The position numbers and the translations under genes are program-made. Below are positions 2,182 to 18,600 of a stretch of 64,000 nucleotides of DNA, one piece after another. Every line of letters starts with the position of its first letter. Position 1 is the first letter of the stretch. Source of the stretch: Corallococcus coralloides DSM 2259 (GTDB taxonomy: Bacteria; Myxococcota; Myxococcia; Myxococcales; Myxococcaceae); NCBI RefSeq assembly GCF_000255295.1, contig NC_017030.1:6358328-6422327 (forward strand), given 5' to 3'. Under the pieces are notes generated by a model that worked only from the letters and a program-made list of their open reading frames with translations, was not told the DNA's origin and made no database searches.

Positions 2182-2206
2182 CGGACGACTTCCTTTCACA
2201 AAAGGC

Positions 2207-3082
2207 TTACGGCGAGAGCGCGGCGAGCCGCTGCTCCGCCTGCGTGGCGGCGGCCGTCCCCGGGAACTGGGTGACGACGCGGGTATAGAGGGCTCGGGCA
2301 TCCACGGCCTGGTTCAGCCGCACCCGGCACTCCGCGAGCCGGAGCATGCCGTCCTGGACGGCATCCCCAGCGGGGTAGTTCTTGATGAGCTTCTCGAACG
2401 TCTTGGCCGCGCCGGCCGCGTCCTTGAGCCCCATCTGGCCCAGGCCGCTGAAGTACAGGGCGTTGTCGGCGCGGGGGTGGCGCGGGTTCTCCGCCGCGAA
2501 GCGCGTGAGGGTCTCCACGCCGCCTTCCACGTTGCCGGTGCGCAGCATGGCCACCGCGCGCTCGTATTCGGCGTCGAGGATGTCCGGATCCTTCTCCGGC
2601 GGCTCCATGCGAGCGGCCGTCGAGGCGCTGATGGAGCCCACCGACCCGGTCCCGTTCGAGCCCTCCACCGGGGAGATGAACATCTCCATCTGGTCCGAGT
2701 CCGGCTCCACCACCGCCACCGCCGTGTTGATGCGCGGCGCGGGTTCCTTCTTCGGCTTGAGCCGCACCACCGTCAGCTCCGCGGGCGCCAGGCTCAGCGC
2801 CTCGCCACCTTCGGGCGAGGCGGCCTCCGGCTTCGTGCTCGCGGTGGCCTTCGGCGACGCCGCGGCGGGGGCCGGGGTGGCGGCGCGGGCGCGCGAGACG
2901 GCGTCGCGGTTCTCCAGCCGTTCCAGGCGCTCCAGCAGCGACGCCTGGGACGCGCGCAGCGTGCGCACCTCCGCCTCCAGCCGGCCCACTTCCGACTGCG
3001 AAGCAGCGGTGGTGGCGCAGGCGGTCGGCGCGGACAGCGCGACGGCGGCAAACAAGCGGAAGAGGAAGGGACGCACCGGCAC
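2207..3082 (-). CDS. cpoB: Tol-Pal system protein YbgF/CpoB (coiled-coil plus TPR)
   Basis: Signal peptide, coiled-coil segment (RLEAEVRTLRASQASLLERLERLE), C-terminal TPR-like region (YERAVAMLRTGNVEGG...RALYTRVVTQFPGT). Confidence 0.7.
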   Translation of the reverse strand: MPVRPFLFRLFAAVALSAPTACATTAASQSEVGRLEAEVRTLRASQASLLERLERLENRDAVSRARAATPAPAAASPKATASTKPEAASPEGGEALSLAPAELTVVRLKPKKEPAPRINTAVAVVEPDSDQMEMFISPVEGSNGTGSVGSISASTAARMEPPEKDPDILDAEYERAVAMLRTGNVEGGVETLTRFAAENPRHPRADNALYFSGLGQMGLKDAAGAAKTFEKLIKNYPAGDAVQDGMLRLAECRVRLNQAVDARALYTRVVTQFPGTAAATQAEQRLAALSP

Positions 3083-3164
3083 GAGCCTGGACGGAGGGAA
3101 TTCCAGGTCGAGGATAGGAAGGCCGGTCGGAGACCGTCAAGAAAACGACCCCGGCGGGCCTCCG

Positions 3165-3923
3165 CTAGAAGCGGTGCAGCACGTAGTTGAGGTGACGCCC
3201 GGTGCGCCCCGCGTCCCGGCGGTGGGAGAAGAACCGGTCCGGATCACACGCCGTACAGGCCTGTAGCACGTCCACGTGCTCCGGCGTCAGGCCCGCCTTC
3301 AGGAGGGACGCCTTCACTGCACGTGGCAGGTCCAGGTGCGGCTTGTCCCCCGCACGGACGACGTCCGGGCCGAAGCGCGCGCGGAAGCGGTCGCCCAGCT
3401 CCGGGGACACCTCGTAGCAGCACGCCTGGATGCAGGGGCCCACCGCCGCCAGCAGGTCCTCCGGCCGGCTGCCCCGCGCCACCAGCGTCTCCACCGTGCG
3501 GGCGCTGATCTCCAGGTCCGTGCCCTTCCATCCGGAGTGCACCGCCGCCACGCGCTTGCCTCGCGGATCCACGATGAGCACCGGCACGCAGTCCGCGGTG
3601 CCCACCGCCACCCAGCTGCCCTCCCCTTCCGTCCACAGCGCGTCCGCTTCGCCCAGCGTCGGGCGCAGCACGTCGTCGGACTCACCGCGCGCCTCCAGCA
3701 CCCTGTCGCCGTGCACCTGCGACACCCGGCAGAGCGCGCCCAGACGCGCGCCCGCGGCCCGGGCCAGAAGTCGGTGGTTCTCCTCCACCCGGGAGCGCTC
3801 GTCGTTCACGGAGAAGCCCAGGTTCAGCGACGCGTAGGGCCCTTCGGACACCCCACCCGCGCGCGTGGCGAAGCCGTGCGGCACCGGCAGCAGTTCGGAC
3901 GTGAGGAACACGGGCGGGGTCAT
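3165..3923 (-). CDS. pgeF: Peptidoglycan editing factor PgeF (YfiH/DUF152, laccase-domain protein)
   Basis: Motifs HGxxV, GTADCVPVL, VHSGWKG, CIQACCYEV. Start at MTPPVFLTSELL (cat at 3921-3923). Confidence 0.8.
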   Translation of the reverse strand: MTPPVFLTSELLPVPHGFATRAGGVSEGPYASLNLGFSVNDERSRVEENHRLLARAAGARLGALCRVSQVHGDRVLEARGESDDVLRPTLGEADALWTEGEGSWVAVGTADCVPVLIVDPRGKRVAAVHSGWKGTDLEISARTVETLVARGSRPEDLLAAVGPCIQACCYEVSPELGDRFRARFGPDVVRAGDKPHLDLPRAVKASLLKAGLTPEHVDVLQACTACDPDRFFSHRRDAGRTGRHLNYVLHRF

Positions 3924-4049
3924 GGGTGGATTTCCTATCACCGGGCTCGGTTTTCGGGAGTGCGCCCACCGTGTCACGGGTACAGCCCGTGAAAACAGGA
4001 AACCGCCGGGAACCCACACCCTCGTTTCAATATTTCGACACCGGTACGT

Positions 4050-6065
4050 TTGACAGGGCGTGTCATGCCCCTGACAATTTTCAACACTCCGTCACTCGCG
4101 GACAGAACGCGAGTGCACGAAGCACACTGCGCCCCGCACATGGCCCTCGGTTCCGAGACGATTGGCAGGAAGCTCTTGTGGAGCATCGCGCTGCCCGGGT
4201 TGGTGGTGGCGCTCCTGGGCGTGGGCCACTTCTCGCGCGAGGCCCGACAGGCAGTGCGGGAAGGCACGCATCTGGAGGCGCTCGCGCTGGCGGAGGCCGT
4301 CGCCTCCACCTTCACGCTGCCGCAGGCGCCGGGCGCGGCTCCCCATGGCGCGGTGGCGGAGGTGCTGGCGTCGGACACGCGGCTGTTCCGCTCCGTGGAG
4401 GACCTGCGCGTCCTGACGCCGGAGGGGCGCATCCGCTGGAGCCGGCGGCCGGCCGAGCAGGGCCACCCGCACCCGGAGGCCTCGCGGCTGTCCGCGACGG
4501 GGCCGGAGACGGCGCGCTCCAGCGACCACGGCACGGAGGTGGTGCGGCCCCTGGGCGGTCCGGAGTGCTCCGGCTGTCACACCGGCGAGGCCGCGCAGCG
4601 CATGGGCGTGCTCCAGGTGCGCATGGGTGAGCCCGCGCTGACCCGCCAGCTCCAGACGGTGTTCCAGGACGCGCTGGGCGCGATGGTGCTCTTCGTGGGC
4701 ATCCTGGGGCTCGTCACCTGGCTGTCCCTGCGCTTCGTGCTCACCGCGCCGCTCAAGCGCCTGAGCGAGGCCATGGGCCGCGCGGCGGACGGCGACCTGC
4801 TGGTGCGCGCGGAGGCCCGGGGCACGGATGAGATTTCGCGGCTGGGCGCGGCCTTCAACCAGATGCTCGCGCGGCTCACCTCCATGAAGGTGGAGGAGAT
4901 CGACACGCACCGCGACCTCCAGCTGGTGAAGGAGAAGCTGGCGCTGAAGGACGAGCTGGAGGAGCGCCTGACGGAGCTGTCGCTGCTGTTCGACGTGGCC
5001 CGCTCGCTCAACACCACGTTGGAGCTGGACGAGCTGTTGTCGCGCATCACCCGCATGGTGGTGGAGCGGCTGCACATCCCGGACTTCTCCATCATGCTCC
5101 TCAACGAGGAGGGCCTGCTGGAGGTGAAGCACGCGTGGCCGCAGGGCCGGGGCCTGGAGGGCCACACCTTCGCCATGGGCGAGGGCGCGTGCGGCCGGGC
5201 CGCCCAGGCGCGCAAGGCGGTGTACCTGCCGGACCTCACGGACAGCACCAGCGTCTTCGCGCGGCGCGGGCTGCGCGGCGGCTCGGAGCAGGGCTCGCTG
5301 CTGGCGGTGCCCATGGTGCACGCGGACACGCTCCTGGGCGTCATCAACTTCCAGCGCCCGGAGACGGCGAGCATCTCCGCGGAGGAGATCGAGCTCTTCA
5401 CCGCGGTGGCGGATCAGGCCGCGACGGCGGTGACGAACGCGCGCCTGCACGCGGAGACGGTGAAGCTCACGCTGACGGACGCGCTCACGGGCGTGCCCAA
5501 CCGCCGCCACCTCTTCCAGCGGATGGACCTGGAGCTGGCGCGGGCCCAGCGCTTCGGCGTGCCCATGGCACTGCTGATGGTGGACGTGGACCACTTCAAG
5601 CGGCTCAACGACCTGGCCGGACACCGCGCCGGGGACGAGACGCTGCGCCGGGTCTCCGACGTGCTCCGGAACCGCGCGCGCAAGGTGGACACGCTGGGGC
5701 GCTACGGCGGCGAGGAGTTCGTGCTGCTGCTGCCGCAGGTGTCCAAGGCCACGGCGGTGGAGGTGGCGGAGACGCTGCGCCGCGCTGTGGCGGACTCCGT
5801 CACGCTCAGCCGTCCGGGGCTGCCCGGAGGGCACGTCACGGTGTCCATCGGCGTGGCGCACTTCCCCACGGACGCGACGTCGCAGGACATGCTGGTGGAC
5901 TGCGCGGACTCGGCGCTCTATTGCAGCAAGCGGACGGGCCGCAACCGCGTGACGGCGTTCGAGCCCGGCATGGAGGTCCACCCCGGCCGCGAGCGCAGCA
6001 TCAGCACGCCGCCCGCGGACGCACCCTCCACGCCGCCCGCGCCCTCCGGCATCGCGAAGGCCTGA
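4050..6065 (+). CDS. Membrane sensor diguanylate cyclase (TM, periplasmic loop with CxxCH, TM, HAMP, GAF, GGDEF)
   Basis: GGEEF motif (RYGGEEFVLLLPQ). Two TM helices flank a ~150-aa loop containing GGPECSGCHTGEAA. HAMP-like LKRLSEAMGRAADGDL. GAF region. The alternative start MALGSE at 4140 is equally plausible. Confidence 0.85.
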   Translation: MTGRVMPLTIFNTPSLADRTRVHEAHCAPHMALGSETIGRKLLWSIALPGLVVALLGVGHFSREARQAVREGTHLEALALAEAVASTFTLPQAPGAAPHGAVAEVLASDTRLFRSVEDLRVLTPEGRIRWSRRPAEQGHPHPEASRLSATGPETARSSDHGTEVVRPLGGPECSGCHTGEAAQRMGVLQVRMGEPALTRQLQTVFQDALGAMVLFVGILGLVTWLSLRFVLTAPLKRLSEAMGRAADGDLLVRAEARGTDEISRLGAAFNQMLARLTSMKVEEIDTHRDLQLVKEKLALKDELEERLTELSLLFDVARSLNTTLELDELLSRITRMVVERLHIPDFSIMLLNEEGLLEVKHAWPQGRGLEGHTFAMGEGACGRAAQARKAVYLPDLTDSTSVFARRGLRGGSEQGSLLAVPMVHADTLLGVINFQRPETASISAEEIELFTAVADQAATAVTNARLHAETVKLTLTDALTGVPNRRHLFQRMDLELARAQRFGVPMALLMVDVDHFKRLNDLAGHRAGDETLRRVSDVLRNRARKVDTLGRYGGEEFVLLLPQVSKATAVEVAETLRRAVADSVTLSRPGLPGGHVTVSIGVAHFPTDATSQDMLVDCADSALYCSKRTGRNRVTAFEPGMEVHPGRERSISTPPADAPSTPPAPSGIAKA

Positions 6066-8384: not shown

Positions 8385-9974
8385 TCAACCGGGCCGGTAG
8401 ACGCGGTAGTCCAGCTCGGGGAACAGGTTGTTGCGGCCTTCGACGTGGGACAGCCACGACTCGTCCACGGTTCCGGCGCGCACCTGGTCGTGCAGGCGCA
8501 GGAAGCGCTGCAGGTGCTCCTTCGTGCGGCGCACGGCGTAGTCCACCATGGTGCCGGTCTTCATGATGAAGGCCCAGTCGGAGGCCTGCGCCAGCAGCAG
8601 CTCGCGCGCGGCCTGGTTCAGCGCCCGGCGCTTGAGGGACGGCGCGTCCGGGAAGTCCCGGGCCAGCTCCACCATCTGCCGCGCGGCGTGGTTCAGGTGC
8701 CGGTAGATCCAGTCGTTGGTCCCATCCAGCCACATGTTCGCGTAGCCGCCCGCGCCCCAGGAGGACATGGGCGGCGTGGCCACCTGGTTCTCCGGGTGCT
8801 CGCGCAGGTCGTCCAGCGGGCTGATGAGCGTGAAGCGGCTGGGGTTGCGCGCGGCCTGGCGGATGAGGGCGTCGATGAAGTGGGGACCCTCGAACCACCA
8901 GTGGCCGAAGAGCTCCGCGTCATAGGGCGCGACGACCACGGGCTTGCGGCCGCCCATGCGCGACGCGAGGTATTCGAACTGGCGCTCGCGGTTGAAGAGG
9001 AAGTTGCCCGCGTGGACCCAGGCGCGCTCGCGGGCGGCGGCCGGGTCGTAGGGCTGCTTGTCGTTCGTCTTGCCGGTGATGCGGAAGTACTTGAAGCCGG
9101 TGTTCTTGCGATCGCCGGTGGGCTGGATGAAGGGCCGGATGTAGTCCAGGTCCAGGTCCCAGCCGATGTCCCGGTAGAACTCGCGGTAGACGGGGTCGCC
9201 GGGGTAGCCGTGCTCGGTGCTCCAGACCTGCTGGCTGCTCTCCGGGTCGCGCGCGAAGGCGGCCACGCCGGGCTCGGTGAAGATGGGCGCGTAGGGGCCG
9301 TGCAGCGGGCGGGGCGTGGCGTCCGTGAGGGCGTGCGTGTCCGCGAAGAAGTAGCGGATGCGCTCGGCGGAGAGGATGCGCTCCAGGCCCGGGTAGTAGC
9401 CGCACTCGGCCAGCCAGATGCCGGCGGGGTCGCGGCCGAAGTTCTGGCGGTAGTGGTTCGCCGCCACTGTCACCTGCGCGCGCACGGCCTCCGGCGTCTG
9501 CTGCATGAGCGGCAGGAAGCCGTGGGTCGCGTTGCAGGTGAGGATGTCCAGGTGGCCGGAGTCCTGGAGTCTGCGGAACGCGGCCACCAGGTCGCGCCGG
9601 TAGTGGTTGTGGTACGCGAGCCGCAGCGATTCGAAGTGGTCGCGGTGGAAGACGGCCAGCGGGTGGAAGGTGGGGTCGTCCCGGGTGCGGTGCACCTCGC
9701 GGGCGCCCAGCTCGCAGAGCGAATCCAGCCGCCGGGCGTAGCGCTCCCGCAGCAGCTCGTCGTTGAGCATCGACACGAGCGTGGGCGAGAGCGTCATCGT
9801 CACCCGGAAGGGGACGCGGTCCTCGACCAGTCTGTCGAACACGCGCAAGAGCGGCAGGTACGTCTCGGAGATGGCTTCGTAGAGCCAGTCCTCTTCGAGG
9901 AAGTCTTCGTATTCGGGATGGCGGACGAACGGCAGGTGCGCGTGAAGGACCAGCGCGAGGGAGCCCAGGCTCAT
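8385..9974 (-). CDS. GH57-family 1,4-alpha-glucan branching enzyme
   Basis: LVLHAHLPFVRHPE, WLAECGYYPGLE, AELFGHWWFEG, which are GH57 catalytic-region motifs. Start trimmed to MSLGSLALVLHAHLPF (cat at 9972-9974); the upstream part of the ORF is Arg/Gly junk. Confidence 0.8.
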   Translation of the reverse strand: MSLGSLALVLHAHLPFVRHPEYEDFLEEDWLYEAISETYLPLLRVFDRLVEDRVPFRVTMTLSPTLVSMLNDELLRERYARRLDSLCELGAREVHRTRDDPTFHPLAVFHRDHFESLRLAYHNHYRRDLVAAFRRLQDSGHLDILTCNATHGFLPLMQQTPEAVRAQVTVAANHYRQNFGRDPAGIWLAECGYYPGLERILSAERIRYFFADTHALTDATPRPLHGPYAPIFTEPGVAAFARDPESSQQVWSTEHGYPGDPVYREFYRDIGWDLDLDYIRPFIQPTGDRKNTGFKYFRITGKTNDKQPYDPAAARERAWVHAGNFLFNRERQFEYLASRMGGRKPVVVAPYDAELFGHWWFEGPHFIDALIRQAARNPSRFTLISPLDDLREHPENQVATPPMSSWGAGGYANMWLDGTNDWIYRHLNHAARQMVELARDFPDAPSLKRRALNQAARELLLAQASDWAFIMKTGTMVDYAVRRTKEHLQRFLRLHDQVRAGTVDESWLSHVEGRNNLFPELDYRVYRPG

Positions 9975-10000
9975 AGGTCGGTCGGAGAGGCCGTACGGGT

Positions 10001-12613
10001 TCACTTCCGTCCACGGCGCGAGGGCCGGGACCTGGTGGAGGACTTGGAGCCCGAGGGCTTGGGCTCCGGTGGGTTCTGGGCCGCCTTCGAAGGCGCGGCG
10101 GGCGGGGACTTCACGGCGTCCGCCTTGGGAGCCACGGCGCTCGGAGCCGCCCGAGACTCCACCTTCGGGGTCGGAGCCGTGGGAGCCTCGGCCTTCGCGG
10201 GCGGAGTGCTCGCGGGCATGGCGGCCGGAGCCTCGACTTTCGCGGGCGAAGGGCTCACGGGCACGGAGGCCAGTGCAGCCCGTCGCGCGGCCTCGCGGGC
10301 CTTGTCGAGGGCACGCTGTTCGGACGCGGAGGGACCGCGCGCCACGCTCAAGGCCCACGGGTCCTTGGGAGGCTCGGGCTCCGTGGGCCGCCACGAGTCC
10401 GTGGAGGCCGTGCCCTGGGTCGATGGGCCAGATGGGAACGAAGCCTCGGCGCCCACCGGAGCCGATGTCCCGACGGGAGGTGACGACGGGAGGTCCCGCG
10501 CTTCAGTCACGTCACCCCGTGAACGCGGCGACTCCGGGGACCAGGCATCCGAGCCCCCGGCCGTACGCGACGCGCCGGGCTGATCCGAAGTGCCCGTGGC
10601 GTGATCCGCGGACAGGCAGCGCTGATCCGAAGCCCCTGCTGCCCGAGGCACTGTCAGGTATTGCTGATCCGACGCACCCGTGGCGCGATCCACCGACAGG
10701 TAGCGCTGATCCGATGCGCCAGCGGCACGAGGTACGGTCAGGTACTGCTGGTCCGACGCGCCCGTGGCACGATCCGCCGACAGGTAGCGCTGATCCGAGG
10801 CCCCTGCGGCACGCGGCACGCTCAAGTACTGCTGGTCCGACGCACCCGCGGCGCGAGGCACGGTCAGATACCGCTGATCCGAAGCTCCCGCGGCCCGAGG
10901 CACGCTCAGGTAGCGCTGGTCCGAAGCTTCCGCGGCCCGAGGCACGCTCAGGTAGCGCTGGTCCGAAGTCCCCTGCCCTCCCGCCACGTACCGCTGGTCC
11001 GAAGCGCCGGGTGCACGCGGCACCTCCAGATAGCGGTACTCCGAAACGCCGCCCGGCAGCTGCGCCTGTCCGTACCGCTGATCCGAAGCGGCTGGTGCGC
11101 GCGGCACCTCCAGATACGGAGACGCCACGTCGTACCGCTGATCCGAAGCGCCCGGTGCGCGCGGGACTTCCAGATACGGAGACGCCACGTCATAGCGCTG
11201 GTCCGAAGCGCCCGGAGCCAACTCCACGGCCAGATAGCGCTGATCCGATGCCCCGGGAGCGCGCGATGGGGCCAGCACCGCGCCCTCACCCAGCGTCGCC
11301 TCCCCCACGCGCGCATACTGCTGGTCCGACGCCCCCGGCGCTCGCGGCGCGCTCTCCAGATAAGCCTCTTCCACGTAGCGCTGGTCCGAAGCCCCAGGGA
11401 CGCGCGGCGCATCGACATAGGCCTCGGTGCGCTCGCGGTGGACCTCCGGCACGTCCACCACCCCGGCGCTCCCAGGCAACTGCACCCGGCGCCAGGTGAC
11501 GTATTCGCGCTCCTCCACCCGGGGAACACGCGCGGACGCCGCCGAGGGGACTGCTTCGCGCAGCCGGTCCACCACCGGCGGAGGCGGCATGCGCAGGAAC
11601 CGGATGGACGTGTCCGCCGACGGCCCCGCGGGCGGCAGCGTGGCCCGATTGGACGAATGTCCAATGCGGCGCGACCGGCCATCCGAGCCGACGAAGTGCG
11701 CCTCCACCCGGTACGTGCGCCCGGGCGTCATGCCCTGCAGATAGAAGCTGCGCGACTCCAGCGCGAAGTCCACCTCGCGCGACACGCCCTCGCCGTCGAA
11801 CACCTTCAGCACCGCACGCGGCGCCGGCAGCTCGTCCAGCGCCCGGTTCCGGCTCGCGTCGCTGAAGTCCCAGAAGACGAAGAGCGTGTGCGGATCCCTC
11901 GCGAGCAGCACCATCGCGTCGTCCTGGTAGTCCAGGGGCAGCATGGCCAGGTGCTCGTCGCGCTCGGGCGACGCGTCCGCCGGAGGAAGGCGCGGCGCCT
12001 GCTCCTCCAGGAGGTGATGGCGGCGCGCCTCCTTCTCTCCCGCCATCTTCGTCACGAAGAACCCCTCCACCAGGGGCTCGGCGGCATGCGGCGGCTCGCT
12101 CGCGGGCGCGGGCTTCGCGGCAGCGGGCGAGTCCCCCTTGGGGGAACTCGACGGGCGCGGCGTGGGCGCTTCCGGCGACAGGGGCTGCGTGTCCTCTTCG
12201 TCCGGGTCGCGGCGCGCCTTCACGCGGGCGGGGAACGTCACCACGCGCGCGGGCCGGGTCCTGGGGCCGCTGCCAGGCTGCGTGATGGGCTCCTCGGAAA
12301 GTTCTCGTGCCTGCGGCGCGGCGGCGCTCTCGGGCGGAGGCAGGGGCACGGACTCGGACGCCGGGCCCTTGGCGTCACGGGAATCCGCCGGGCCGGAATC
12401 CAGGGCCTTCTCCTCGCCACCCACGTCACCGGAGCCGCGCCGGGACGTCGCCAGGCCGGCCATGCGCGCGAGCCGCCCCAGGGCGGGAATGCGCTCGGCC
12501 AGCGAGGAGACCAGCTCCCGCCCGCGGGACGCGCCAGCTCCCTCCCGGAGATATTTCCGGGCCAGCTGCCGCAGGTAGCTCACGGTGACGCCCTTCCGCT
12601 CATCCATGGACAC
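10001..12613 (-). CDS. DUF4912-domain protein with a long internal tandem-repeat array (GASDQRY x about 22) and an Ala/Pro-rich C-terminus
   Basis: DUF4912-like core (MLPLDYQDDAMVLLARDPHTLFVFWDFS...YRVEAHF), a family often encoded next to GH57 enzymes. Ends 27 bp upstream of the GH57 start, suggesting an operon. The N-terminus faces the divergent GT4 gene. Confidence 0.7.
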   Translation of the reverse strand: MSMDERKGVTVSYLRQLARKYLREGAGASRGRELVSSLAERIPALGRLARMAGLATSRRGSGDVGGEEKALDSGPADSRDAKGPASESVPLPPPESAAAPQARELSEEPITQPGSGPRTRPARVVTFPARVKARRDPDEEDTQPLSPEAPTPRPSSSPKGDSPAAAKPAPASEPPHAAEPLVEGFFVTKMAGEKEARRHHLLEEQAPRLPPADASPERDEHLAMLPLDYQDDAMVLLARDPHTLFVFWDFSDASRNRALDELPAPRAVLKVFDGEGVSREVDFALESRSFYLQGMTPGRTYRVEAHFVGSDGRSRRIGHSSNRATLPPAGPSADTSIRFLRMPPPPVVDRLREAVPSAASARVPRVEEREYVTWRRVQLPGSAGVVDVPEVHRERTEAYVDAPRVPGASDQRYVEEAYLESAPRAPGASDQQYARVGEATLGEGAVLAPSRAPGASDQRYLAVELAPGASDQRYDVASPYLEVPRAPGASDQRYDVASPYLEVPRAPAASDQRYGQAQLPGGVSEYRYLEVPRAPGASDQRYVAGGQGTSDQRYLSVPRAAEASDQRYLSVPRAAGASDQRYLTVPRAAGASDQQYLSVPRAAGASDQRYLSADRATGASDQQYLTVPRAAGASDQRYLSVDRATGASDQQYLTVPRAAGASDQRCLSADHATGTSDQPGASRTAGGSDAWSPESPRSRGDVTEARDLPSSPPVGTSAPVGAEASFPSGPSTQGTASTDSWRPTEPEPPKDPWALSVARGPSASEQRALDKAREAARRAALASVPVSPSPAKVEAPAAMPASTPPAKAEAPTAPTPKVESRAAPSAVAPKADAVKSPPAAPSKAAQNPPEPKPSGSKSSTRSRPSRRGRK
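10555..11410 (-). repeat. About 20-22 copies of a 42-bp (14-aa) in-frame direct repeat encoding LSVPRAAGASDQRY variants
   Basis: Period-42 repetition of gtagcgctgatccga(a/t)gc...ggcacg visible in the + strand sequence. Translates to [LY]xVPRA[AP]GASDQ[RQ]Y. Confidence 0.85.
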
Positions 12614-12742
12614 CTCGCCTCGTTATGACGCGGCATACAGGGGGTCAACGCATCCGTCACGGGATGTGTTGTTCCGCCGACCCCCTTCTTCATCCGTCAC
12701 GCCCGATGACACCTCACCCCTGTCCAAGTATCCTGCGACCGC

Positions 12743-15523
12743 TTGAGTGACCTGCCCAGACTTCTCCTGTGCAGCTTCGACGTCATCCCCGGCCCGTCTG
12801 GCTCCTCACGCCGACTGACCGAGTATCTGAAGGCGTTGCCTGATCGCTTCTCAGTGGTGGTGCTGTCGGCGAAGACGCCCGACCACTCCCATATCGAGAA
12901 GTACCAGGGCGCCCGGCTACTCCGCGTCCCGGTAGGCTCCGGGGACCTGGCGTCGCGCATCCAGTCCTTTGAACGGGCCGTTCGCCGCCAGCTCGAAAGC
13001 GAGGACTACGCCCTCGCCCACTTCACGGACCCCTTCGGGGGGTACGCGCTGTGCGAGCTGAAGGCGGACTACGGCTACCGCCTCATCTATGAGGCGCAGA
13101 CGTTCCCGTCCCAGGAGCTGCGCTACACCCATCCCCAGACGGACGGCGACCGCCGCTTCCTGTCGAAGATCCGCCGCCAGGAGCTGTTCTGCCTGATGAA
13201 CGCGGACCTCGTCGTCACCGGCTCGCAGACGACGCGCGCGTTCATCCAGGGGCTGGGCGCGGCGGAGGACCAGCTGCGGACGATTCGCGCCCCCGTGGAC
13301 CTGAAGCCGTACGACCCGGAGGTGCTCGGCGCCCCGGACGGCTCTCCGCTCCGGATGATGTACCTGGGCAGCCACGTGGGCTGGCAGGGCCTGCCCACCC
13401 TCCTGCGCGCCACCGCGCTCGCGGCCCAGCAGGTGGACGTGCGCCTGACGCTGGTCGGCGCCCACCATCCGGACTGGAAGCCGCACCTGGAGGACCTGGT
13501 CAACGACCTGGGCATCAAGGAGAAGGTCGACTTCCAGCCGCCCGTCGCGCACGACGACCTGGTCAAGGTGCTGGCGCTGGCGGACGTGGGCGTGCTGCCG
13601 CTGGACGACTCGGAGCGCAACCGGCTCCAGGGCGGACCGCTGGCCAAGGTCTCCGAGTACCTGGCCGCCGGCCGGCCGGTCATCGCCGCGGACCTGCCCG
13701 TCACCCGCGAGCTGATTCCGAAGGACGCGGCCATCTTCTTCCCCCCGGGCGACAGTCGCGCCCTCTCCGAGCGCATCCTGGACCTGGCGCGCGACGTGCC
13801 CCGCCGCGTGGCGCTGGGCAAGGCCGGGCGCGCGTTCGCGGAGAAGGTGCTGGACGCGGGCCTCATCCGGGGCCAGCTGCTGGACCTCTACGACTCGCTG
13901 CTGGAGAAGCGCGGCCACGGCCCGGTCGAAGCCGCCAGCGAGCCGCCCGACGTCACGATGACGGGCACGCCCACGAACCGGCTCGCGAGCCTGGGCATGC
14001 CGGAGGCGTCCCAGCCCGCTCCGGCGCCCAAGCCGCCCGCGAAGCCCGCCGTCCAGGCCGCGTCCGACGAAGCCGACCCGCCCCCTACGAAGGAAGGCCC
14101 GGAGGACGCGCCCGTGGTGATGGGCATGGCCCTGGACGACGGGATGGACACCCGGCTCGTCAAGACCGAGCCGGACATGCGGCCGGACGAAGTGCCCATG
14201 GTCATGGGCCTGCCGCTGCGCGAGTCCGCCACGGCCGCTCCGGCCCCCGCAGGCAGGGAAGCCACGCCGCCTCCGGAGCCCGAGGCCGCGCCCCAGACGA
14301 CCGACGACACCGCGAAGACGACGCTCCCCTCCTCCCCCGCGAAGGACGGCGAGCCGGAACCGCTGGGGGGCCGTGGCTCGGAGCCGGCTCCGCCCACGGA
14401 GATGGTGACGAGTCCCCTGGTGAAGGCCCTCGGCTTGAAGGAGCTCAGCCGGGACGACGCCGGGGATTCGGATGCGGAAGCCCGCGCCTCCGAGGATGGC
14501 TCCTCTGGAGCGACGGCGGTCGTGCGCCGGCCGGTGGAGGTGGAAGAAGACGACTCGAGCACGCCGGCCCCCACGCCCGTCGTGCGCCGGCCCGCCTCCG
14601 AGGATGAGGCCCCCGCCCCCACGCCCGTCGTGCGCCGGCCCCTGCCCGAAGACGAACCTCCCGCGGCCACGCCCATCGTGCGCCGTCCCACCTCCCTCTC
14701 GGAGGACGAGGAGCGCGCGCCCACGCCCGTCGTTCGCCGGACCGGGGTCATGCGTGAGGAGGAAGAGGCCCCCGCGCCTACGCCCATCGTGCCCATGCGC
14801 TCGTTGCTCACCGGGGCGCGAAGCACGAGCGCCAGCCGCGCGCAGCGGCCGCAGGACTCCACTCCCTCTGAACCCCCGCGTCTCTTCCCCACTCCCTCTC
14901 CCATGGCCGACGCGGAAAAACCGCCCATCCGTGGCGGCCTCGCCGCGGATCCAGGCCGGCCCGCCTCTCGCCCCCCGGTGCTCGCGGAGTCCGACAAGCC
15001 GCCCATCCGAGGAGGCTCCGTCTCCGACGCGGACCGCCCTCCGCAGCTGCCGCCCCGCGCCGCCGCGCCGCCGCCCGTTCCTCGCCAGGGACCGCCCCGG
15101 CTGAGCCCCACGCCGCCGGTGCTGAAGCCCTCCGTGTCATCCGACGACGAGCCGGAGGAGATCGCCGCCGACGAGGCCCAGTCCCTGGACGACGACGCCG
15201 GCAACACGCCCTCCAACGCCAGCGCGGCGCTGGACGAGGCGGAGGAGATCGCCGCCGACGAGGTCCACGACGCGGACGCGCTCGAAGTGGAGGCCGCGGA
15301 TGCCGAGGAGGCCGTGGATGAAGGCCCTCCGCCCGCGCCCCCCGACTCCACCCTCAACCCGTGGTTCGCCCAGCTGGCGCACGGGTACTGTCCCCCCGAG
15401 GGCGCCCGCTTCGCCCGGCACACCCCGCCCACCAACTTCCCCGGGCGGGATCCGGAAGAAGGCGTGCCCCCCGGGTCGGTCCCGCCTGTCGGGCAGGGAG
15501 CGGTTCGCGGCAAGAACTCGTGA
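12743..15523 (+). CDS. GT4-family glycosyltransferase (about 390 aa) fused to a ~540-aa Pro/Ala/Glu-rich low-complexity tail
   Basis: GT4/GT-B C-terminal motifs (ADVGVLP...E...VSEYLAAGRPVIAADLPVTRELI). Tail contains APTPVVRRP x5 and KPPIRGG x2 repeats. Confidence 0.75.
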   Translation: MSDLPRLLLCSFDVIPGPSGSSRRLTEYLKALPDRFSVVVLSAKTPDHSHIEKYQGARLLRVPVGSGDLASRIQSFERAVRRQLESEDYALAHFTDPFGGYALCELKADYGYRLIYEAQTFPSQELRYTHPQTDGDRRFLSKIRRQELFCLMNADLVVTGSQTTRAFIQGLGAAEDQLRTIRAPVDLKPYDPEVLGAPDGSPLRMMYLGSHVGWQGLPTLLRATALAAQQVDVRLTLVGAHHPDWKPHLEDLVNDLGIKEKVDFQPPVAHDDLVKVLALADVGVLPLDDSERNRLQGGPLAKVSEYLAAGRPVIAADLPVTRELIPKDAAIFFPPGDSRALSERILDLARDVPRRVALGKAGRAFAEKVLDAGLIRGQLLDLYDSLLEKRGHGPVEAASEPPDVTMTGTPTNRLASLGMPEASQPAPAPKPPAKPAVQAASDEADPPPTKEGPEDAPVVMGMALDDGMDTRLVKTEPDMRPDEVPMVMGLPLRESATAAPAPAGREATPPPEPEAAPQTTDDTAKTTLPSSPAKDGEPEPLGGRGSEPAPPTEMVTSPLVKALGLKELSRDDAGDSDAEARASEDGSSGATAVVRRPVEVEEDDSSTPAPTPVVRRPASEDEAPAPTPVVRRPLPEDEPPAATPIVRRPTSLSEDEERAPTPVVRRTGVMREEEEAPAPTPIVPMRSLLTGARSTSASRAQRPQDSTPSEPPRLFPTPSPMADAEKPPIRGGLAADPGRPASRPPVLAESDKPPIRGGSVSDADRPPQLPPRAAAPPPVPRQGPPRLSPTPPVLKPSVSSDDEPEEIAADEAQSLDDDAGNTPSNASAALDEAEEIAADEVHDADALEVEAADAEEAVDEGPPPAPPDSTLNPWFAQLAHGYCPPEGARFARHTPPTNFPGRDPEEGVPPGSVPPVGQGAVRGKNS

Positions 15524-15610: not shown

Positions 15611-18600
15611 GTGAAGGGCTTCATGGAGCGTCGCGTCCTCATCGTCGAAAGCCAGAACGACTTCGCACTCAGCATGGCCTCCGTGCTCAAGAGCGCGGGC
15701 TACAACACGGCCATGGCCACCACTGCGTCAGACGCGCAGCGGGAATTGGAGAAGCGCCGACCGGACCTCGTGGTCGTGCGCGCGGAGCTGCCGGACCAGT
15801 CCGGCTTCGCCCTCTGTGGGCAGATCAAGAAGGGCAAGTGGGGCCAGAACCTGAAGGTCCTCCTGCTCTCCTCCGACTCCGGTGTGGAGGGTCTGAACAA
15901 ACACCGTGAGACGCCGGCCGCCGCGGACGGCTACCTCGTCATCCCGTTCGAGATGGGCGAGCTGGCCTCCATGAGCGCTGGCATCGTGCCGCCCGGCTCC
16001 GACGAGTCCGACGCGGACCTGGACGCCGCGCTCTCCGGTGCGCCGCGCGAAGCCCCGCCGCCCATGCCCGGCGTGCGCACGGGTGCTCCGCCCAAGCTGC
16101 CCAAGCGCGAGCGCCGCAGCGCGATGACGGACGAGGACAAGGCCTTCATGGACCGGGCCTTCTCGTCCATCGCGGACCGCAAGGCGGAGCTGCTGGCGGA
16201 GTCGCGTCAGCTGAAGCGCCCGCCCCCGCGCCGCGAGCTGATGGGCACGCCCGAGGGCAAGATCCAAATCCTCCGGGACGAGCTGAAGACGCGCGAAGCC
16301 CAGCTGGCGCGCCTGTCGGAGATCTGGAGCGTCCGCGAGCGCGAGCTGCTCTCCGTCGAGGACCGCCTCCACGAGAAGGACGTGGAGCTGCAGGGCCTGA
16401 AGATGCAGGTCGACGACCTGCTCCGGCGCTTCAACGACGCGCAGCAGTCCATCGTCCAGAAGGAGCGCGAGCACGGCGCCACTGTCGACGACCTGCTCCT
16501 CCAGAAGTTCTCCTCGGAGAAGGACCTCATCGAGGTCGTCGCCTCCAAGGAGAAGGACATCAACGTCCTGCGCAAGGAGGTCAACCTCCGCGACGAGGAG
16601 CTGTCCCGGCGCGGCGCCGACCTGGAGTCCTGGCGCAACGAGTTCGACAAGCTGGAGAAGCACCTCGGCGTCGTCACGCTGGAGTTCGAGGTCAAGGAGC
16701 AGAAGCTCCAGGACACCGTCCGCGCCAACGAGGCGGACATCCTCCAGCTGCGCGAGCGCGGCGACCAGTTCGAGTCCGAGCTGTCCCGCACCGTCAGCGA
16801 GCGCGACCAGCGCTATGCCGAGCTGGACGGCGAGCTTCAGGCCCTCCAGGAGCGCCTGACGCAGACGGAGCAGGAGCGCGACGCCACCGTGCGCGGCCTG
16901 GAGGCCCGGGCCACGACGGCGGAGGAGCACGCCAGCCGTTCGGACGCGGAGATTGAACGCCTCAACGCCGAGCGCGCCGCGCTGGAGCAGCGCCTCAACC
17001 AGCAGGTCGCGGACCTGGAGTCCGACATCGCGCGCGTCACCGGCGAGCGCGACCAGCTCCGGCTGGACAAGGACGCCCTGGAGGCGGACCTCACGCAGCG
17101 CGTGGAGGAGCGGGAGGCGAAGATCTCCGCGCTCGACCGCGAGCTGCAGGAGACCATCGCCCGCAACGAGAACAGCGAGGCGGAGCTCAACGCCACCATC
17201 CAGCAGCACCGTGAGCGCATCGGTGAGCTGGAAGGCGAAGTCGAGGCCGTCAAGACGCACCTGGAGGACCGCGAGAACGAGCTGAACGCGGAGATCCAGG
17301 CGCTGCAGCAGGCCAAGGACGCGCTGGAGCAGGACCTCACCAGCCAGCTGGAGGACCTGCGGGCGGCGAAGGATGCCCTGGAGGCGGACCTCAACGGCCA
17401 GATCCAGGCGCTCACCGAGCAGCTGGACGCGGCCCAGCGCCAGGGCGAACAGCTCTCCGCGCGCGTGGCCTCGCTCGAGGACACCGTCGCCCAGCGCGAC
17501 GGCACCATCGAGGGCCTGCAGACCGACGTCTCCGACCGCGACTCCCGCATCGCCGAGCTGACCGGCAACCTGGAGGCCACGAGCCAGCAGCTCTCCGAGA
17601 CGCAGAACACGCTCTCCAGCACGGAAGCCACCCTCGCGGAGACGCGCGGCGAGCTGGAGGCCACCAGCCAGCAGCTCTCCGAGACGCAGGGCACGCTCTC
17701 CAACACGGAGGCCACCCTCTCCGAGACGCGCGGCGAGCTGGAGGCCACCAGCCAGCAGCTCTCCGAGACGCAGACGCGCCTGGCGCAGACGGAGGAGACG
17801 CTCTCCACCACGCGCGGCGAGCTGGAGGCCACCAGCCAGACGCTGGCCACCACCGAGGCGACCCTCGCGGACACGCAGGGCACGCTGGCGCGCACGGAGG
17901 CCACGCTCTCCGACACGCAGGCACCCTCTCCAAGCACCGAAGGCACGCTGGCCGAGACGCGCGGTGAGCTGGAGGCCACCAGCCAGACCCTCTCCGACAC
18001 GCAGGCCAGGCTCGCGCAGACGGAGGAGACGCTCTCCACCACGCGCGGTGAGCTGGAAGCCACCAGCCAGACCCTCTCCGACACGCAGGCCACGCTCTCC
18101 AGCACGGAGGGCACGCTCTCGGAGACCCGCGGCGAGCTGGAGGCCACCAGCCAGACGCTGACGGAGACGCAGGCCAGGCTCGCGCAGACGGAAGGGACGC
18201 TCGCGTCCACCCAGGGCGAGCTGGAGGCCACCAGCCAGACGCTGGCCACCACCGAGTCCACGCTCGCGCAGACGCAGGACACGCTGGCGCGCACGGAGGC
18301 CACGCTCGCCGACACGCAGGCGACCCTCTCCAGCACGGAAGGCACGCTCGCGGAGACGCGCGGTGAGCTGGAGGCCACCAGCCAGACGCTGACGCAGACC
18401 CAGGAGACCCTGGAGTCGACGCGCGCCGACCTGGCGAAGGTCACCCAGCACCGTGACGAGCTGGACGCGGAGCTCCACGAGACGCGCGACCTCCTCCAGG
18501 AGACCAACGGCCTCCTCGCCCGCACCACCGAGGAGCGCGACGCGCGCATCGCGGACCTGCAGGCGCTCAACGCGGCGAAGGACGCGCTGGAGCAGGACCT

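Follow-up and report, generated by a model that had tools for sequence, protein, structure and literature searches.

A DUF4912 protein encoded beside a GH57 branching enzyme in Corallococcus coralloides and its relatives carries an amplified short motif in a predicted disordered tail

A 64,000-nucleotide stretch of DNA from Corallococcus coralloides DSM 2259 (the window) contains the gene COCOR_05065, an open reading frame (ORF) of 870 codons at 10001..12613 on the minus strand, counted from GTG 12613. It encodes a DUF4912 protein with a repeat array in its C-terminal half. The gene is near-obligatorily coupled to that of a GH57 branching enzyme, which is the strongest clue to its function. 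The repeat array, judging by sequence, is an amplified form of an older short motif and a lineage-specific elaboration of a recognised uncharacterised family. Two observations stand out: in most of the loci that were compared, by a wide margin, DUF4912 lies directly upstream of GH57, and one clade has expanded a single tail motif into an array under purifying selection that reaches about 17-18 copies. As such, the repeat is less exotic than at first sight. We tentatively favour a reading, with a rough probability of 0.42, in which the DUF4912 protein is an adaptor or scaffold of an alpha-glucan module made of GH57 and a family 4 glycosyltransferase (GT4), and the motif array is its multivalent docking tail.

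The start chosen by the ORF finder is GTG 12613. The annotated start is ATG 12607 (868 amino acids, aa), two codons inside, and the N-termini of the orthologues ('MDDLKSVTV') agree with the latter. The orthologue in Myxococcus xanthus is ABF89196.1. The original prediction, made from the letters and ORFs of this DNA, had named a DUF4912 core, and the match to the Pfam family DUF4912 (PF16258) at aa 229-334 bears it out (score 71.5 bits, cut-off 29.4; the match covers positions 1-115 of the 118 in the profile). Long ORFs on the plus strand at 10069..11499 and 10601..12628 were rejected as high-GC shadows, as the Pfam match and more than 300 homologues back the minus frame. The gene and its parts are listed below.

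10001..12613, minus strand: whole DUF4912 gene (ORF, Pfam match, 100% identity to P0001, the COCOR_05065 product on a 10.08-Mb record)
12461..12583, minus strand: N-terminal three-helix module, Rho_N/SAP-like (aa 11-51; AlphaFold2 helices)
12083..12448, minus strand: Pro/Ser/Ala-rich linker, predicted disordered (aa 56-177; predicted local distance difference test, pLDDT, below 50; disordered side of the charge-hydropathy boundary)
12011..12082, minus strand: conserved segment 'AEPLVEGFFV..GE.EARRHHL' before the core (aa 178-201; alignment)
11594..11941, minus strand: DUF4912 core, predicted FN3-like beta-sandwich (aa 225-340)
11423..11518, minus strand: long predicted beta-hairpin 'EEREYVTWRRV.LPGS...VHRER' (aa 366-397; AlphaFold2 strands, conservation)
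10952..11416, minus strand: proximal irregular motif copies, units 0-8, 'PRAPGASDQRY' at 12-27-residue spacing (aa 400-554; motif list, tandem repeat search, orthologues)
10574..10951, minus strand: strict array of 9 x 14 residues (aa 555-680; tandem repeats of 42 and 84 bp, unit table, identity matrix, substitution ratios)
10328..10573, minus strand: degenerate remnants (e.g. 'GGSDAW') and a Ser/Pro/Thr-rich disordered stretch (aa 681-762; sequence, pLDDT mostly below 50)
10268..10327, minus strand: predicted amphipathic helix 'SASEQRALDKAREAARRAALAS' (aa 763-782; AlphaFold2 helix, pLDDT about 80)
10004..10267, minus strand: basic Ala/Pro/Lys-rich tail ending in 'SRPSRRGRK' (aa 783-870; net charge +10, isoelectric point 11.1)

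Typical DUF4912 members found are 200-450 aa long and have 0-2 tail motifs; no DUF4912 match was found on plasmids. The window protein resembles the rest of the family in its above-threshold core, in the borderline Rho_N head of its orthologues and in having no assigned function. It differs by the 18-copy array and the basic Ala/Pro/Lys tail. In the literature search the family was described only as uncharacterised and Rho_N-containing; one paper speaks of a conserved cyanobacterial 'Rho-like' protein of unknown function (PMC13613805). Orthologues from Myxococcus hansupus (P0034) and Archangium gephyra (P0076) are named 'alginate regulatory protein AlgP' in some sources. This is likely a misleading annotation, apparently derived from Lys/Ala/Pro-rich low-complexity linkers. 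Searches of Pfam and NCBIfam gave no AlgP or histone-H1-like match in the DUF4912 protein, and the likeness seen is one of composition only.

The gene directly downstream encodes, by its sequence matches, a GH57 branching enzyme.

8385..9974, minus strand: GH57 1,4-alpha-glucan branching enzyme, 529 aa (Pfam, PDB matches, adjacency)

Its likely start, ATG 9974, is 26 nt past the TGA stop of the DUF4912 gene, on the same strand. The protein matches the Pfam families GH57 (E 2.8e-31) and BE_C (E 1.9e-41). Among solved structures it is closest to the PDB entry 2b5d of Thermotoga maritima (E 1.7e-169), with 5wu7, 3n8t and 1ufa next (E 1e-75 to 1e-82); its scores lie under the NCBIfam equivalog cut-offs of the Thermococcales and Thermus models. 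A longer mechanical ORF, 8385-10394 on the minus strand, adds 140 codons that overlap the end of DUF4912. It was rejected as a high-GC artefact, having no counterpart in relatives or solved structures. The originally proposed location between a GT4 and a GH57 branching enzyme thus holds: both neighbours are matched in Pfam, the GT4 being divergent. No other glycogen genes were found within about 15 kb in the window.

Gene context was compared in 80 DUF4912 loci from genomes ranging from Corallococcus to Anaeromyxobacter. GH57 follows 0-29 nt after the DUF4912 stop in about 70 loci, essentially all those with downstream DNA; in two short relatives, of 224 and 226 aa, the distance is 1 nt. With a degenerate DNA pattern made by hand for 'RDP.TLF..WD', 120 further DUF4912 loci were retrieved from metagenomes, of which those with at least 400 nt downstream were testable. 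GH57 is directly downstream on the same strand in 75 of these 80 testable loci, including contigs of GC 0.51-0.58. The five exceptions are L129, L183, L146, L182 and L092. The first two have amino-acid permease genes downstream of DUF4912 and no GH57 there. In L092 (GC 0.42; Ga0180431_10000002, 2206-4663) a 202-aa DUF4912 gene is followed by DUF5752, whose start overlaps the DUF4912 stop, and by a TreT-like GT4 (TreT_GT1 plus Glycos_transf_1), and GH57 is absent from that position. This apparent operon is still one of alpha-glucoside chemistry, which suggests that the DUF4912 family is tied more generally to alpha-glucoside/alpha-glucan synthesis. Candidate DUF4912-GH57 fusions in L045 and L078 were discarded: the ORFs run through, but the coordinates of the high-scoring segment pairs give two different frames.

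The coupling of the two genes suggests that the DUF4912 protein organises glucan synthesis. The literature search returned no mention of this tight coupling. The locus of M. xanthus DK 1622 keeps the gene order of the window and consists, in sequence, of a 1395-aa protein, GT4 (1055 aa), DUF4912 (784 aa), GH57, HtrA, a GDSL hydrolase and a GGDEF protein. The GH57 gene (L084:12381-13970) is MXAN_2994, and in proximity labelling with EpsW, an exopolysaccharide regulator, its product was enriched along with seven other proteins, all eight being of unknown relevance (PMC12802240). From gene order beside MXAN_2994, we infer that the orthologous genes are MXAN_2992-2994. The literature search found MXAN_2994 in this connection only, where it is given no role, and nothing on MXAN_2992 or MXAN_2993.

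The repeat region contains 18 clear 'GASDQRY'-type motif copies at aa 409-680 (for instance 'YLSVPRAAGASDQRYL') and about two degenerate remnants, fewer than the approximately 22 copies initially counted. The in-frame 42-bp tandem repeat that had been described is real, being detected by Tandem Repeats Finder (TRF) at 10579-10976 with 9.4 copies, a score of 356 and 75% matches. However, the strict 14-residue register is confined to nine consecutive units. The nine proximal copies succeed one another at spacings of 20/27/14/20/20/14/14/12 residues and include a 60-bp repeat (TRF, 11071-11236) that encodes the 20-aa sequence 'DVASPYLEVPRAPGASDQRY'. In the strict array, units of the types 'L[ST]VPRAAGASDQ[RQ]Y' and 'LS[AV]DRATGASDQQY' alternate, giving a super-period of 28 aa (84 bp); for the array at 10579-10976 TRF scores the 84-bp period better than the 42-bp one (4.7 copies, 82% matches).

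The original prediction took the units to be almost perfect, and their codons to be near-identical, as after a recent expansion or contraction. Neither description fits. The pairwise nucleotide identity of units in the strict array is 75% on average (range 60-90%), the mean amino acid identity is 74%, and units with an identical peptide use different codons and agree at only about 80% of DNA positions. For pooled unit pairs of the strict array, the proportions of synonymous and nonsynonymous differences (pS and pN) are 0.45 and 0.17 (pN/pS 0.39); for the seven-residue motif core in all 18 copies they are 0.53 and 0.11 (pN/pS 0.21). The codons for Gly, Ala, Asp, Arg and Tyr of the motif vary. 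Units 0-3 and 6 share 88-95% identity with the units at the same positions in C. coralloides KYC2213, and only 57-76% with the best paralogue within their own protein. Several proximal units have one-to-one orthologues in other Corallococcus species. Some units of the distal array are likewise closer to orthologues than to paralogues. A few distal pairs (u4/u5/u7, u9/u10, u13/u15), with 88-90% identity, resemble duplications specific to this lineage. Among Corallococcus proteins, 3 to 9 consecutive spacings of 14 residues occur, so that the suggested comparison of copy numbers across Myxococcaceae does reveal variation between species, and four sequence variants from M. xanthus have the same array. 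Since copy number differs between species, turnover of repeat units is real but slow. As far as sequence comparison tells, the repeats are old and diverged, formed by slow birth-and-death of units with purifying selection on the peptide, and not by a recent burst.

An assembly artefact or a collapsed repeat is very unlikely, since units that are only 75% identical do not collapse in assembly; moreover, the protein is identical on the 10.08-Mb record. Independently assembled Corallococcus genomes have the same repeat architecture.

One possible alternative is that the array is a neutral low-complexity expansion, a spacer made by slippage whose sequence is of no consequence, function being limited to the DUF4912 core and the extreme C-terminus. 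Indeed, copy number and tail length vary widely among species, a few unit pairs retain 88-90% identity, and the GC content at third codon positions (GC3) of the array, 0.75, is the lowest among the coding segments of the window. However, the pN/pS values among units (0.21-0.39), the one-to-one orthologues of the proximal units, the constancy of the array within M. xanthus and the retention of the motif across genera despite completely diverged flanks make this explanation improbable. The GC3 of the repeat region was calculated for 10544-11416 on the minus strand; that of the DUF4912 core is 0.93, and other window genes have 0.85-0.97. The codons GAT, GCT and TAT, expected to be uncommon in such a GC-rich genome, are frequent in this region.

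The motif instances were compared in three groups of lineages, with 326 unique instances in Corallococcus, 264 in Myxococcus/Pyxidicoccus and 346 in the Archangium group. The core G-[AS]-S-[DE]-Q, followed by an aromatic residue (+2 to +4), is common to the three groups. The forms of the motif, and the copy numbers counted with the pattern G-x-S-[DE], are as follows.

Corallococcus: 'YL[ST]VPRA[PA]GASDQRY', 13-17 copies
Myxococcus/Pyxidicoccus: 'YLE..RAPGASD[QLM]RY', 16 copies in Pyxidicoccus and 7 in Myxococcus (two species)
Archangium/Stigmatella/Hyalangium: 'GP.GSSEQW.W', 3-11 copies in Archangium
Cystobacter: 3-7 copies
Hyalangium and Citreicoccus: 2 copies
Basal Myxococcaceae genomes: 0-2 copies
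Anaeromyxobacteraceae: 0 copies

Across Myxococcaceae and Archangiaceae the motif is present in 1 to about 17 copies. The flanks differ among the three groups and the spacers range from 12 to 53 residues; thus the motif is conserved and its spacing is not. The most conserved positions are Gly and Ser. The latter is present in 93-97% of instances in every group and is followed by Asp or Glu. Where Corallococcus has Tyr, the Archangium group has Trp or, in some instances, a different residue. The tails of Anaeromyxobacteraceae bear a different element, 'ARLSDWSRF'. Among 102 complete DUF4912 tails from metagenomes, 93 have no copy of the motif and the maximum is two. The strict motif was absent from the other reading frames of the window and from the 20-kb flanks of the relatives, the regions that were searched. 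The repeat region matches no family in Pfam or NCBIfam, so that no known repeat family was found for it, in agreement with the earlier statement that no characterised protein is known to have such a repeat. On sequence and model grounds, P-x-G-[AS]-S-[DE]-Q-x-[YW] is a short linear motif under purifying selection within a predicted disordered segment.

The conserved residues allow two further explanations. One, raised in the original prediction beside cation binding, is that the repeats bind glucan directly, each motif providing an aromatic platform (Tyr/Trp) and hydrogen-bonding Asp/Glu, Gln and Arg, so that the array would wrap or zip onto an alpha-glucan and keep the branching enzyme at its substrate. 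The conserved residue types are typical of sugar sites, the aromatic residue follows S-[DE]-Q at +2 to +4 in all groups, the repeat region has 20 aromatic residues per 287, and the neighbouring genes encode glucan enzymes. On the other hand, Pfam revealed no similarity to carbohydrate-binding modules (CBMs), the most invariant residues are Gly and Ser and not the aromatic one, whose position shifts between lineages, and no ordered surface is predicted, whereas known glucan-binding repeats are folded. We consider this explanation unlikely, although it overlaps with docking and differs from it only in the identity of the ligand.

The other explanation is multi-site modification. The invariant Ser would be phosphorylated by a Ser/Thr kinase, of which myxobacteria have many, or O-glycosylated, and the array would act as a graded switch for the glucan module. 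This would account for a Ser that is second only to Gly in conservation, is always followed by Asp/Glu and has TCG as its codon in all 18 copies, and at one distant locus the slot of the divergent GT4 is taken by a Ser/Thr kinase gene. But this kinase neighbour is a single case, and the conserved Pro-x-Gly before and Gln-x-aromatic after the Ser suit a docking motif at least equally well. Thus multi-site modification seems rather doubtful.

The architecture of the protein was derived from an AlphaFold2 model of the full-length single chain, built on a 66-sequence alignment in which invariant columns were also counted. The predicted N-terminal helices (11-22, 31-41, 43-51) have pLDDT of about 56-76. 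In two Myxococcus orthologues this module scores 24.7 and 25.0 bits with Rho_N (PF07498), borderline against the cut-off of 24.9; the Rho_N profile gave no match in the COCOR_05065 product at E <= 1. The linker at aa 56-177 is highly variable in length and Lys/Ala/Pro-rich in other genera. Residues E183, G184, F185, F186, V187, H199 and H200 of the segment before the core are invariant. The core itself is predicted with pLDDT 88-95, and its best structural neighbours are FN3 domains and not CBMs; Pfam likewise gave no CBM family match anywhere in the protein, though a novel surface might still bind glucan. In the predicted hairpin, with strands at 366-378 and 385-397 (pLDDT about 80), R369, E370, Y371, W374, L379, P380, G381 and S382 are invariant. 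The Ala/Pro/Lys-rich tail of the original prediction is present, its DNA having 30-bp and 45-bp TRF repeats at 10137-10271, and many relatives end in a conserved 'W.PPPSGRGR'.

The whole repeat region (aa 404-726) is modelled at pLDDT 31-41 and without secondary structure, and is probably a disordered tail. It combines predicted disorder with a repeated motif under selection, the two properties of multivalent disordered short-linear-motif proteins, at a charge-hydropathy value that is borderline. A beta-solenoid had been raised as a possibility to be checked with AlphaFold. A folded repeat domain of 14-residue units, beta-solenoid or cross-beta, would explain the regular period with a strand-prone 'RYLSVP' in each unit and is compatible with the borderline charge-hydropathy. 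However, the model contains no strands, half of the copies are spaced irregularly, and in the Myxococcus and Archangium orthologues the motif persists between very different spacers, which a regular solenoid would not tolerate. We therefore give a folded array very little credence.

The preferred reading, a scaffold with a docking tail, also involves the divergently transcribed neighbour of DUF4912.

12614..12742, no strand assigned: 129-bp divergent intergenic region from the DUF4912 gene to the GT4 gene, presumed to be their shared promoter region (coordinates, sequence reading)
12743..15523, plus strand: GT4 glycosyltransferase, 926 aa, divergent (Pfam match, weak PDB matches, synteny)

The catalytic part of this GT4 (about aa 1-395; best PDB match sucrose-phosphate synthase, with a weak E of 5e-11) is followed by a tail of about 530 aa (13928-15523). 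The tail is strongly acidic (net charge -45, isoelectric point 4.4) and predicted disordered. It contains five repeats 'APTP[VI]VRRP', two repeats 'DKPPIRGG' and a TRF repeat at 14567-14695, and its C-terminal block, 'LNPWFAQLAHGYCPPEG.RFARHTPPTNFPGRD', is highly conserved. The total length of GT4 in relatives ranges from 416 to 1485 aa and the repeat number varies. The divergent GT4 was found only in Myxococcaceae, Archangiaceae and a few basal lineages, and not in the loci of Anaeromyxobacteraceae. Every lineage that bears the motif also has a divergent GT4 with a long disordered repeat-carrying tail. No simple relation between motif number and GT4 tail length is apparent by inspection of the listed values, for which no statistic was calculated. 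In L083 (contig of GCA_032654565.1, 3423-5912), a distant DUF4912-GH57 locus, the divergent slot is occupied not by GT4 but by an 829-aa Ser/Thr kinase.

The GT4 gives rise to one more explanation, protein-primed alpha-glucan synthesis. The eukaryotic primer glycogenin glucosylates itself, and its tail contacts the synthase. By analogy, the long-tailed GT4 might O-glucosylate the invariant motif Ser, although we regard this as a long shot. It is just as improbable that each motif seeds a chain to be branched by the co-translated GH57, which would give up to about 18 chains per polypeptide, and that the protein would thus play in a bacterium the part that glycogenin or the core protein of a proteoglycan plays elsewhere, a role for which the odds are very poor. 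The DUF4912 protein does resemble glycogenin in being a glucan-pathway protein with a conserved hydroxyl residue, which provides the template for a protein primer. Unlike glycogenin, it has no GT8 domain (no match in Pfam), its motif Tyr is Trp in sister genera, and its glucosylation is hypothetical. The Tyr as a glycogenin-like acceptor is disfavoured by the Trp at that position in the Archangium group.

In the scaffold reading, the DUF4912 protein with the array in its C-terminal half would be cytoplasmic, the operon partner of the GH57 branching enzyme, and a modular adaptor that serves a second module of alpha-glucan synthesis, of the GH57/GT4 type. Its FN3-like sandwich and hairpin would perform an ancient function common to all relatives, most likely binding of the branching enzyme or its glucan, as the near-obligatory gene coupling indicates. 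The array would offer many equivalent low-affinity docking sites that concentrate several copies of a partner on one polypeptide, the candidates being the branching enzyme, the long-tailed GT4 and the glucan. The Rho_N-like head and the basic Ala/Pro/Lys tail may anchor the protein to a polyanion, for example the nucleoid. The number of motif copies would then set a valency adjusted to each lineage: basal lineages have 0-2, those genera of Archangiaceae that were sampled 2-11, and Myxococcus, Pyxidicoccus and Corallococcus about 7-17. It may be speculated that the acidic GT4 tail, with its own repeats, would suit multivalent assembly.

Several points weigh against this reading. The docking partner is given as candidates only, all of them inferred, and the anchoring role that the head and tail could have is based on composition and on a Rho_N match that is borderline and confined to orthologues. 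Being generic, the FN3-like fold is uninformative about the ligand. The charge-hydropathy value of the repeat region lies on the line (H 0.425 against a boundary of 0.420) and the strand-prone 'YLSVP' recurs every 14 residues in the array; from these two features, the region might fold upon binding or self-association. AlphaFold2 may miss folds where the alignment of repeats is unreliable. Finally, the association of the motif with the long-tailed GT4 is confounded by phylogeny, and three basal lineages (L038, L041 and L042) have the GT4 next to DUF4912 without the motif.

Similar modes of working are known from other systems. In CsoS2, the disordered scaffold of the alpha-carboxysome, repeated short motifs are multivalent enzyme-docking sites (10.1101/708164; PMC11365436). 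The DUF4912 protein is likewise long, predicted to be disordered and endowed with a repeated short motif of lineage-variable copy number, and its gene is adjacent to that of the enzyme it putatively organises. However, there is no sequence relationship, the DUF4912 protein has a folded FN3-like domain, and the binding of CsoS2 to Rubisco and shell has been demonstrated, whereas here the partners are candidates; the analogy concerns the mode of working and not family membership. PhaM of Ralstonia eutropha attaches polyhydroxybutyrate (PHB) granules to the nucleoid (PMC3556143). It is also an accessory protein of a carbon-storage polymer with a basic Lys/Ala/Pro-rich tail, and might be a model for the tail and the Rho_N/SAP-like head described here. 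The polymer is different, though, no homology is expected, and DNA binding by the DUF4912 protein is conjectural.

The DUF4912-GH57 pairing, together with the motif array, provides a testable handle on how bacteria might organise alpha-glucan synthesis. GH57 branching enzymes are widespread, and the genetically tractable M. xanthus carries the orthologous genes. If the protein is a scaffold, it would be a storage-polysaccharide counterpart of the organisers of carboxysomes and PHB granules. If it is not, the array still documents amplification of a short motif by slow birth-and-death of repeat units.

GT4 genes occur beside genes of GH57 branching-type enzymes elsewhere, as in the window locus. 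Examples are the mycobacterial pair Rv3032/Rv3031, part of the locus for methylglucose lipopolysaccharide (PMC2674218; PMC6629080), and Archaea in which GT4 genes lie amid GH57 genes (PMC11046441). As far as the excerpts of these papers extend, the descriptions do not mention a DUF4912 partner, and the window GT4 differs from the GT4 described there by its 530-aa disordered tail. In the same excerpts, the role of the GH57 branching enzyme is treated as unresolved where the classical GH13 enzyme is also present (PMC6629080), as is the function of GT4 genes clustered with GH57 genes (PMC11046441).

One more gene with internal repeats follows GT4.

15611-20218, plus strand: 1535-aa protein with a response-regulator receiver domain and, after it, a coiled coil of great length

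The 1395-aa protein beside GT4 in M. xanthus DK 1622, with no Pfam hit on record, occupies the same position as this protein; we tentatively take it to be AglZ. The 1535-aa protein contains tandem repeats of its own, with an 84-bp (28-aa) unit 'TRGELEATSQ.LS.TQ.TL..TE.TL' at 17563-18387.

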